Source of the DNA: Octopus vulgaris
Taxonomy: Eukaryota
Length of the DNA stretch: 64,000 bases
Assembly (NCBI GenBank): GCA_951406725.2
Contig: OX597832.1
Span: 50,096,001-50,160,000 of the forward strand
Reading direction: 5' to 3'
Position 1 is the first letter of the stretch. Each line of letters starts with the position of its first letter. Shown here piece after piece: positions 1,232-39,548 of the stretch. A program made the translations under genes and the position numbers. Under the pieces are notes generated by a model. The model was not told where the DNA came from, did not search any database, and saw nothing but the letters and a program-made list of their open reading frames with translations.

Positions 1232-1523
1232 GTGTGTGTGTTTGTTATCTTTTGATCGGAAGGTTTATTTAGTTCAAGGTGTGTTACTCACAAAGTGAGA
1301 ATTGTCCCTGGAAAATAAGTAAATAAAATATAAAAAAAGAAAGAAAAAATGAAAAAAAAAATAGACCCTATCCCATGTATTGTGTCTGTCTATATAAAGG
1401 CGTGTATTTATGCATGTGTGCACATGTCTTTTATGATGTGCGTATTATATATAAAACAAATGAATTGTTTTGTTTTTGGATTTGGTTTGCAAGATTCTTT
1501 GTGAGTTCGTGTGTTGAAGCATA

Positions 1524-2089
1524 TTCTGTTGTGTCTGGGAGAGAGTCATTTTCTTTTTGTGCCTTATAATTTACCATACTCACTGGTAAAATTTCCACTT
1601 ATTTCTTATTTTTATTCTCTTAAAATTTTCGTTGCGTCTTGCAACCTTTTCAATAGTCTTGACCCTATTGAAAAGGTTGCAAGACACAACGAAAATTTCT
1701 TTTTGTGCCTTATAATTTACCATACTCACCGGTAAAATTTTCACTTATTTCTTATTTTTATTTTCCTAAAATTTTCATTGCGTCTTGCAACCTTTTCAAT
1801 AATCTTGACTCTATCGAAAAGGTTGCAAGACACAATGAAAATTTCTTTTTGTGCCTTATAATTTACCATACTCACCGGTAAAATTTCCACTTATTTCTTA
1901 TTTTTATTTTCCTAAAATTTTTGTTGCATCTTACAACCTTTTCAATAGAGTCAAGACTATTGAAAAGGTTGCAAGACGCAACGAAAATTTTAGGAAAATA
2001 AAAAGTAAGAAATAAGTGGAAATTTTACTGGTGAGTGTGTTACATTATAAGGCACAAAAAGAAAATGACTCTCCCCAGACACAACAGAA
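1524..2089. mobile_element. Penelope-like pLTR array: ~146-bp tandem units inside a large inverted repeat, containing six hammerhead-like motifs
   Basis: Units recur at ~1551/1697/1843; 1957-2089 is the reverse complement of 1524-1656; motif CTA-TTGAAAA-G-GTTGC-AAGAC-GCAAC-GAAA-AT-TT-TAG. Confidence 0.7.
1957..1993 (+). ncRNA. Minimal hammerhead ribozyme, U3-A8 core variant (best copy of the array)
   Basis: Stem I CTA/TAG, core TTGAAAA, stem II GTTGC/GCAAC, GAAA, palindromic AAAATTTT helix III, UH=TT. Confidence 0.6.
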
Positions 2090-2232
2090 AATGGATTGTT
2101 GTTGTTTTGCTGCAGGTCAGCTCTCTGATTGAGCAAATTTATATTCAAAGGCTTTTGATATGTCAGCTGGGATTTTCCAGTCTTCTTTATTTTTAGTTTA
2201 TTTTTTTTTTTTTTTTTTTAATGGATACAGTG

Positions 2233-15156: not shown

Positions 15157-15482
15157 AGCATCTATTTGTACCAGGCTTCTAAGTAATGTACTAACAGGAA
15201 GATAAGGATAATAGATTTTGACTAAGTCACAAGGCTGATCTTTGATAGGAGAAGTGGTGTTGGGTTTTTACTTGATTAAAACAGCCCCTGTATATGACTG
15301 GTACTTGCTTTGATAATCAGCATCTGTTTGTACCAGGCTTCCAAGCAATGTACTAACAGGAAGATAAGGATAATAGGTTTTGACTAGTCACAAGGCTGAT
15401 CTTTGATAGGAGAAATGGCTGTTGGGTTTTTACTTGATTAAAACAGCCCCTGTATATGACTGGTACTTGCTTGGATAATCAG
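15157..15482. repeat. 162-bp tandem duplication, two copies
   Basis: AGCATCT(A/G)TTTGTACCAGGC starts at 15157 and 15319. Confidence 0.9.
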
Positions 15483-15660: not shown

Positions 15661-16037
15661 AACATAGCCATATTTCGTCTGCTGTTACATTCTGAGTTCA
15701 AATTCCACCGAGGTCGACTTTGCCTTTCATCCTTTCGGGGTCGATTAAATAAGTACCAGTTATGCACTGGGGTCGATATAATCGACTTAATCTGTTTGTC
15801 TGTCCTTGTTTGTCCTCTCTGTGTTTAGCATCCTGTGGATAGTAAAGAAATAGGTATTTCGTCTGCCGTTATGTTCTGAGTTCAAATTCCGCCGAGATCG
15901 ACTTTGCCTATCATCCTTTTGGGGTCGATTAAATAAGTACCAGTTACGCACTGGGGTCAATACAATCGACTTAATCCGTTTGTCTGTCCTTGTTTGTCCT
16001 CTCTGTGTTTAGCCCCCTGTGGGTAGTAAAGAAATTG
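15661..16037 (+). mobile_element. Two tandem 5'-truncated SINE family B copies
   Basis: Repeated family B body. Confidence 0.8.
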
Positions 16038-16057
16038 GTATTGTAGAAGGCCAGGTT

Positions 16058-35369: not shown

Positions 35370-36064
35370 GCGATGGGTTTCTTTCAGTTTCTGTCTATCA
35401 GATCCACTCATAAGGCTTTGGTCACCCTGAGGTTATAGTAGAAGACACTTGTCCAAGGTGCCATGCAGTGGGACTGAACACAGAACCATGAAGTTGGGAA
35501 GCAAGCTTTTTATTTCTTTATTGCTCACAGGGGCTAAACACAGAGGGGACAAACAAGGACAGACAAACGGATTAAGTCGATTACATCGACCCCAGTGCGT
35601 AACTGGTACTTAATTTATCAACCCCGAAAGGATGAAACGCAAAGTTGACCTCGGCAGAATTACAACGCAGAACGTAACGGCAGACAATATACCTATTTCT
35701 TTACTACCCACAAGGGGCTAAACACAGAAAGGACAAACAAGGACAGACAAAGGGATTAAGTCGATTATATTGACCCCAGTGCATAACTGGTACTTAATTT
35801 ATCGACCCCGAAAGGATGAAAGGCAAAGTCGACCTCGGCGGAATTTGAACTCGGAACATAACGGCAGATGAAATATCGCTAAGAATTTCACCCGGCGTGC
35901 TAACGTTTCTGCCAGCTTGCCGCAAGCTTCTTACCGCACAGCCACGCCTGTGCCTTGTATAAAAAGATTGTTAAAATATTTTATGTATTGTAAAAATATA
36001 AGCAATTTATTGCTCATACATTTTAACAAGAAAATCTTATATGGACCCCAGTTGAGAACCACTG
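35000..36064. mobile_element. hAT/Charlie-like MITE interrupted by SINE A (35141-35950, -), itself interrupted by two SINE B copies (35512-35922, -)
   Basis: CATTGGTTCCCGA / TTGAGAACCACTG TIRs; TSD ATCTAAAT/ATGTAAAT; homologous to 61247-61923. Confidence 0.75.
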
Positions 36065-38739: not shown

Positions 38740-39548
38740 GGTGCTGGTGCCATGTAAAAAAGCATCCAGCCCACACTGTAAAACGGTTTACATTTGGAAG
38801 GGCATCCAACCATAAAAACCCTACCAAAACTGACCTTGCTTGTGCTGGTACCACATAAAAAGCATTCAGTCTATACTGTAAAATGGTTTACATTTGGAAG
38901 GGCATCCAGCCATAAAAACCCTACCAAAACTGACCTTGCTTGTGCTGGTACCACATAAAAAGCATTCAGTCTATACTGTAAAATGGTTTACATTTGGAAG
39001 GGCCTCCAGCCATAAAACCCCTGCCAAAACTGACCTTCCCTGTGCTGGTGCTGCATAAAAACCATTCAGTTCACACTGTAAAATAGTTTACATTTGGAAG
39101 GGCTTCCAGCTATAAAACCCCTGCCAAAACTGACCTTGCTTGTGCTGGTACCACATAAAAAGCATTCAGTCCATACTGTAAAATGGTTTACATTTGGAAG
39201 GGCATCCAATCATAAAAACCCCTGCCTAAACTGACCTTGCCTGTGCTGGTGCTGCATAAAAAGCATTCAGTCTATACTGTAAAATGGTTTACATTTGGAA
39301 GGGCATCCAGCCATAAAACCCCTGCCAAAACTGACCTTGCCTGTGCTGGTGCCACATGGAACGCATTCAACTCACTCTCTGGAGTGTTTGGTGTTAGGAC
39401 GGGCATCCAGCTGTGAAAACCCTGCCAAAACAGACACAGTAGCCTGGGGTAGTCATCTACCTGGCCGACTCCTGTCAAATCATCCGACCCATGCCTGCAT
39501 GGAAAGCGGATGTTAAACAACAACAACGATGATGATGATGATGATGAT
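38740..39548 (+). repeat. ~100-bp minisatellite (about 6 units) expanded within a family D element
   Basis: TGTGCTGGT recurs at 38841, 38941, 39041, 39141, 39242, 39342; ends in the family D (GAT)n tail. Confidence 0.9.

Follow-up and report, generated by a model that had tools for sequence, protein, structure and literature searches.

Layout of the insertion

The window analyzed here is a 64,000-nt stretch of the Octopus vulgaris genome (contig OX597832.1, positions 50,096,001 to 50,160,000). Within it, positions 1466 to 2089 read as a single insertion of a Penelope-like element (PLE), now decayed, that consists of two pseudo-LTRs (pLTRs) placed head to head. A target duplication of 12 nt with 1 mismatch frames the whole insert. 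In the numbering used throughout, the repeat arm begins at E1 (window position 1957 on the plus strand and 1656 on the minus strand), E34 is the predicted hammerhead cut base, E133 is the end of the pLTR, and the tail ends at about E193. The features are as follows.

1458 to 1469, plus strand: left target-site duplication, overlapping the final tail bases; 11 of 12 positions identical to 2089 to 2100
1466 to 1523, minus strand: PLE tail, about E134 to E190, aligning with the tail of family copies
1524 to 1656, minus strand: arm A (m1), full pLTR from E1 to E133; motif at 1656 to 1620 with an intact core and a 2-bp stem I
1657 to 1664, unstranded: spacer 1, the upstream pLTR bases of the left arm
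1665 to 1698, plus strand: short copy b1, E1 to E34, ending at the predicted cut base, without the 3' strand of stem I
1696 to 1698 and again 1842 to 1844, unstranded: tail-to-tail junction of E34 with E105 to E108, with a 3-nt TTT microhomology
1699 to 1802, minus strand: re-copied arm A' (m2), E1 to E105, with C11.1>U
1803 to 1810, unstranded: spacer 2, oriented as spacer 1
1811 to 1844, plus strand: short copy b2, E1 to E34, with U4>C and C11.1>U, without the 3' strand of stem I
1845 to 1948, minus strand: re-copied arm A' (m3), E1 to E105, with G12>A
1949 to 1956, unstranded: spacer 3, the reverse complement of spacers 1 and 2
1957 to 2089, plus strand: arm B (p3), full pLTR without a tail; motif at 1957 to 1993, predicted cut after 1990
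2089 to 2100, plus strand: right target-site duplication

An earlier sequence-only reading had described an array at 1524 to 2089. Its left boundary was wrong, as the element continues to about 1466, through a tail of about 58 nt that had been missed. The repeat structure in that description was accurate. The three units of about 146 bp are 146 nt each and share 91 to 94% identity (1550 to 1987), the closing inverted copy at 1957 to 2089 is 93% identical to the inverse of 1524 to 1656, the two internal plus-strand copies do end at GAAAATTT (1698 and 1844), and the third spacer is flipped relative to the first two, with one mismatch from each.

The list of open reading frames in the window (standard code; 83 frames, mostly microsatellite) holds no evident host gene. 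A MITE or other foldback DNA transposon was considered and ruled out, because the ends are unequal, with a tail on one side only, and family copies adjoin remnants of reverse transcriptase (RT) and GIY-YIG endonuclease. Further short tandem arrays occur elsewhere in the window, at 15157 to 15482 (162 x2), 15671 to 16042 (184 x2), 35511 to 35868 (184 x2), and 38741 to 39369 (100 x6.3); by their appearance, these four may be duplicated pieces of SINE-like repeats.

Family copies and classification

The family is abundant, with at least 6,194 copies counted as exact matches to one 20-nt pattern in the 2.8-Gb genome. Exact head-to-head centres number 362 genome-wide, and 54 head-to-head junctions were present among 97 loci not chosen for that layout. 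Arm ends fall in two peaks, E123 to E137 and E187 to E196, each holding 33 of 100 arms in the first 50 listed palindromes and, respectively, 40 and 39 of 98 arms in a second sample. This second sample comprised 97 loci out of 100 listed matches to a C3-variant search (202 matches in all), two matches having already been sampled and two lying in one region. Nonrepeat target duplications of at least 10 nt flank 7 of 17 full palindromes, and 3 more palindromes sit in (TA)n.

Coding remnants accompany some copies. At one locus (L012), a frame resembling the RT thumb, a CX4CxxC linker, and a YIGET motif occur about 200 nt upstream of the same pLTR, and at L019/L111 the endonuclease part is present. 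Pfam gave GIY-YIG at an E value of 0.003, below the cut-off, and no RVT_1 hit; a PDB search with the RT fragment returned 0 matches. Atlas neighbours at 0.95 to 0.97 serve as leads only: HTH_animal occurs in one of their clusters at 67%, and RVT_1 in a second at 11%.

Remnants of an RT with a C-terminal GIY-YIG upstream, the inverted pLTR pair with an optional tail at one end, and the target duplication were all found, and these sequence features place the family among the EN+ PLEs. A CX2-5CxxC linker before GIY-YIG is given as defining the Neptune/Nematis clade (PMC8557442), and the CX4CxxC linker at L012 points to Neptune or Nematis. PMC3846280 and PMC8557442 describe EN+ PLEs with inverted pLTRs that meet in a palindrome, a tail on one side, and a target duplication. 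The octopus family is like the Neptune/Nematis-type elements of these sources in its head-to-head pLTRs, joint palindrome, and tail at one end, in target duplications of about 10 to 13 nt with frequent (TA)n targets, and in a C-terminal GIY-YIG after CX4CxxC, the latter seen in one family copy. Compared with the elements in the same sources, the window locus differs in having no coding sequence, a tail of about 58 nt rather than 30 to 40, and a centre made into three palindromes.

Arms of the same palindrome are closer to each other than to arms elsewhere (mean distance of 7.4% in 17 palindromes versus 9.7% between loci), which suggests shared templates or conversion between arms.

Several smaller observations concern individual copies. 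Unusual variants common to both arms of a palindrome were seen at L103 and in the pairs at C4:59102545 and C6:24778429. At L072 and L124 the arms end at E83 and have 12-nt target duplications, one exact and one with a mismatch, and these ends suggest that a third, minor reverse-transcription start site may lie inside the pLTR. The 5' ends of truncated copies in L003 to L030 cluster at E-9 to E-7, at an AGTC-AA-GACT hairpin immediately upstream of the hammerhead. At L002 (1240 to 1380), a family insertion lies beside part of a different repeat, which bears a CTGAAGA motif and may be a second PLE pLTR.

State of the hammerhead motifs

The motif carried by the family belongs to the minimal type I hammerheads: it has U3-A8, a single extra base ahead of G10.1, and a 15.2-16.2 palindrome that lacks a loop. 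Among 20,000 dinucleotide shuffles of a family pLTR plus tail, 0 produced a hammerhead-shaped motif, and the presence of the motif is therefore beyond chance; the earlier attribution to a retroelement hammerhead holds, the element being a PLE pLTR family. Metazoan PLE hammerheads are described with U3-A8, the extra base, the loopless palindromic 15.2-16.2, and low activity in vitro (PMC4209133). The octopus motif has in common with them the U3-A8 core, the extra base between 9 and 10.1, G10.1-C11.1, the loopless 15.2-16.2 palindrome, and placement in the pLTR. It differs from the examples in that source in having U at position 17, a stem II of 5 bp and a stem I of 3 bp (7 to 8 and 4 to 5 bp in Schistosoma), and, in the array, damage or incompleteness in 4 of 6 copies.

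Six hammerheads had been proposed for the array, a count that was not confirmed: the full descriptor is passed by 1 of the 6 motifs, that at 1957, and by 2 when stem I is relaxed, which adds the minus-strand motif at 1656 with its 2-bp stem I. Elsewhere, G12>A is present in the minus-strand motif at 1948, U4>C at 1811, and C11.1>U in the minus-strand motif at 1802, and both short plus-strand copies lack the 3' strand of stem I. No Rfam family reached its gathering score within the window, and the 73 Rfam matches at an E value of 10 or less over 1300 to 2300 included no hammerhead; they were to generic hairpin models and were taken as chance.

Folding of the whole array on either strand gave a predicted stem II pairing of 0.0 for all six motifs, versus 0.89 to 1.0 for three motifs folded alone. 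Long hairpins are predicted to bury all six motifs, and the array is predicted to be catalytically silent. The sequence-only reading had offered both a long hairpin and dimeric cleavage from either strand. The predicted folding supports the hairpin on both strands, and dimeric cleavage is unlikely given four damaged or incomplete motifs and the loss of predicted stem II pairing in 6 of 6.

Non-LTR retrozymes (10.64898/2026.07.22.740005) resemble the array in being tandem units of 100 to 150 nt that derive from a PLE pLTR and carry type I hammerhead motifs. In that source, retrozyme units run head to tail and were counted as active only if consecutive units hold complete motifs. Here, unlike in a retrozyme, the unit is itself palindromic and its motifs are damaged (G12>A in m3, C11.1>U in m2), and it is not dispersed, its junction being found at this locus only. 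By the criteria of that source, the array was rejected as a retrozyme.

Across 171 family copies, variation is highest at two CpG sites of the motif. Copies with both C3 and G8 made up 4 of the first 100 of 202 C3 copies, a neutral rate, and no C3-G8 subfamily was found among them. Because the CpG sites are the most variable and C3 is uncompensated by G8, family copies are judged to decay neutrally. A single recent source would give the same absence of 3-8 covariation, so function in the parent is not contradicted.

Breakpoints around the predicted cut base

The sequence-only reading also proposed to test whether truncation points throughout the family cluster at the UH cleavage site. Two pooled samples, anchored upstream of the cut site, yielded 41 early breaks between E20 and E119. 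Only 1 falls at E34 and 3 at E33 to E35; E30 to E36 holds 11 (p of about 9e-5 versus uniform), and the second AAATTTTA run, at E66 to E72, holds 5. By sample, the E30 to E36 interval accounts for 9 of 25 breaks in the palindromes and 2 of 16 in the second sample (p = 0.31), where E34 itself has 0 of 16. At least 5 of the 11 breaks at E30 to E36 are internal deletions or duplications, and among the terminal ends there, four have no target duplication and a fifth lies inside (TA)n.

A genome-wide search for E34 followed by a base other than T gave 243 matches; the first 100 comprised 86 point changes or small indels and 14 breaks, the latter from 10 loci. E34 breaks extrapolate to about 0.5% of the 6,194 copies, close to the per-position background. 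Ends running into (TA)n occur in 26 of 6,194 copies at E28 to E40 versus 8 of 4,570 at E63 to E75 (p = 0.035, or 0.13 after removal of five ends probably broken upstream), and of these 26, as judged by eye, 7 are compatible with E34 and 13 lie at E28 to E30.

The breaks form a broad excess around the cut site with no sharp peak. The cut site lies in an A4T4 run, itself a source of microhomology. The self-complementary run of the hammerhead dimer is also microhomology, and breakpoints there are thus no proof of cleavage. In an anole PLE the endonuclease prefers ATT (PMC11167929), a preference that by analogy could offer an alternative cause of breaks at the A4T4 run.

Sister arrays

With A and B for the arms, S for the spacer, b for the short copy, and A' for the re-copied arm, the array reads A(S b A')n S-flipped B, an arrangement that two further loci share. 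L094 (G000:C5:38736845-38737872) has 7 short units, giving eight palindrome centres with a period of about 102 nt and a flipped last spacer, a tail on the right arm, and a target duplication of about 11 nt. L095 (G000:C7:24860492-24860958) has 1 unit, in the order A S b A' S-flipped B. Its spacer is longer, which leaves no doubt about the flip; its tail is on the side opposite that of L094. Both loci were found via a search requiring E34, so that their end point was selected and the flipped last spacer was not. The short copy ends at E34 in all three flipped-spacer arrays (two of them selected for E34), A' is of the A type at all three, and none of the internal spacers is flipped (0 of 2 in the window, 0 of 7 in L094).

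The junctions of L094 and L095 lie at a 7-nt AAAATTT, a junction class seen at no other locus. The unit junction in the window is private, 2 of 3 genome-wide matches to its pattern being here and the third an unrelated end. An inverted junction not selected for the cut site was found at L207 (228 to 637), where one arm is interrupted at E68, in the other AAATTT run, by an inverted segment from E88 to E15, with a 13-nt target duplication around the insertion. Tail-to-tail junctions of E65 to E80 with E105 to E120, away from the cut site, gave 0 matches, an uninformative result.

Sequence variants bear on the relative age of the units. In the window, m1 to m3 are alike, and differ from arm B, at three sites and in one indel, and a T>G common to all three is near-private (5 exact genome matches, 3 of them here). 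Their mutual divergence of 5.3 to 6.3% is nearly that from arm B (6.3 to 7.4%). At L094, the A-type units are 0 to 2 changes apart in 55 nt and 4 to 6 from arm B, and two changes occur in all seven short units and in neither arm. Because the short units share changes absent from the arms and the A-type units are near-identical, L094 must have expanded after insertion. At L076, slippage occurred with spacer orientation kept. Of 50 simple palindromes, 29 could be scored for spacer ownership, which lies with the tail arm in 17 and with the opposite arm in 12.

Origin of the array

The array is a decayed head-to-head PLE pLTR insertion whose centre was probably amplified in place at the DNA level and not from self-cut RNA. 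A small inverted triplication would turn a simple palindrome into A S b A' S-flipped B. For this, a nascent DNA strand would have crossed between the complementary arms and copied the centre backwards, flipping the spacer, before its return at E34/E105-108, where a short A/T microhomology lies. A and A' form a direct repeat of 105 nt, and slippage across it could then have duplicated S b A'; since units added by slippage keep the first orientation, all spacers but the last would point the same way. The junction likely lies at the cut site because the self-complementary AAAATTTT of the ribozyme dimer helix is also good microhomology for a strand switch. The layout of an inverted triplication was found in single-step form at L095, as this mechanism predicts, and with extra units in the window and L094. 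As m1 to m3 are nearly as diverged from one another as from arm B, the amplification in the window would be an old event, perhaps as early as the insertion or its repair.

Small inverted triplications (DUP/IN/DUP) have been described with median parts of 148/160/148 bp and 6-bp junctions, and slippage over them has been proposed (PMC13334657). Together with short-range template switches (PMC7954356), these events are in the same size range as the PLE arrays and have a reversed middle segment, a short reverse-complement junction, and direct repeats prone to slippage. The PLE arrays differ from them in that one switch would go through the long pLTR arms rather than a 6-bp match (PMC13334657, PMC7954356), and differ from the published triplications in that the unit is further expanded, twice in the window and seven times in L094 (PMC13334657). 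The published events come from yeast, cancer, and ape genomes (PMC13334657, PMC7954356), and PLE insertions were not found among such events in the literature searched.

Some observations run against amplification by inverted triplication. The array junction has three T where both parents have four; a 5-nt microhomology register would leave four, and three fits an end exactly at E34. The short units of L094 lack the variant that A and A' have in common, which is a better fit to slippage and a separate flip, and the comparison covers only three arrays. A stepwise version, again acting on DNA after insertion, is unlikely. In it, two rounds of plain microhomology slippage would have duplicated S b A', and an independent inversion between the longest arms would have turned the last spacer. 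Slippage that keeps spacer orientation does exist (L076), the L094 variants fit a b derived from arm B, and the 17-to-12 split in spacer ownership among the 29 scorable of 50 palindromes is what frequent flips would give, but under this version the last spacer must have turned independently at 3 of 3 loci, a chance of about 1 in 8 at equilibrium, while every internal spacer kept its orientation in the window (0 of 2 flipped) and in L094 (0 of 7). Somewhat less likely still is that the array was made during insertion, with the PLE RT or host repair repeatedly folding new cDNA back on itself, no cleaved RNA being involved. The units are almost as diverged as the two arms, a single target duplication frames the whole insert, and complex tandem and inverted insertions are described as typical of PLEs (PMC8557442, PMC3846280). 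Set against this, folding back on the nearest copy should give alternating spacers instead of all but the last alike, the L094 expansion came after insertion, and the tail is found on either side.

The sequence-only reading had the RT jumping repeatedly onto RNA cut by the hammerhead at E34, an account that was correct in calling for a strand switch, which the flipped spacer needs, and that we consider improbable in its use of self-cleaved RNA as the substrate. Both short copies end at E34 with three T, the junction count being in its favor; 11 of 41 early breaks lie at E30 to E36; and protein-assisted cleavage in vitro is reported for the hammerhead of the anole PLE (PMC11167929). Against these stand the absence of a peak at E34, which takes 1 of 41 early breaks (0 of 16 in the second sample) and by extrapolation about 0.5% of copies, near background; sister arrays joined at a 7-nt microhomology; an inverted junction at the other AAATTT run (L207), not selected for the cut site; and units that share locus-private changes. 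At least 5 of the 11 breaks at E30 to E36 are internal, and four terminal ones lack a target duplication, versus 7 of 17 full palindromes with one. The template would also have had to include the palindrome of this very locus, in which the motif is predicted to be buried. In the anole PLE, insertion did not require cleavage and no RNA reads ended at the site (PMC11167929). Equally improbable is the corollary that the b ends are in vivo RNA 3' ends from self-cleavage that served as templates for the PLE RT, with E34-ending arrays as a genomic footprint of the ribozyme. If true, the model would supply in vivo evidence of PLE hammerheads cutting and feeding the RT, evidence that two papers on the subject describe as lacking. 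Least likely by far is an artefact of palindrome assembly. Among the contigs listed, none spans the stretch or is seen to cross 1698 or 1844, but the units differ by 6 to 9%, with several changes at CpG sites. A contig of run X4 matches 1783 to 1843 with 0 differences, private bases of unit 2 included, and runs X1 and X3 carry the right junction (2066 to 2150) with 0 differences, so the array is unlikely to be such an artefact.

Relation to known elements

Each part of the locus is known: the inverted pLTRs of PLEs, U3-A8 minimal hammerheads, and small inverted triplications. Searches of an open-access library turned up no paper that joins the three, and none of the papers listed there for octopus PLE hammerheads was seen to describe this family. 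The locus is mostly ordinary, one decayed copy among thousands. Head-to-head PLE insertions appear to seed rare palindromic micro-arrays of fixed layout, which are natural substrates for the study of short template switches. A different palindromic arrangement was seen at L117 (G000:C12:35471200-35472300), where two palindromic insertions face each other across (TA)n and form an inverted repeat with arms of about 300 nt that reach into the flanks.
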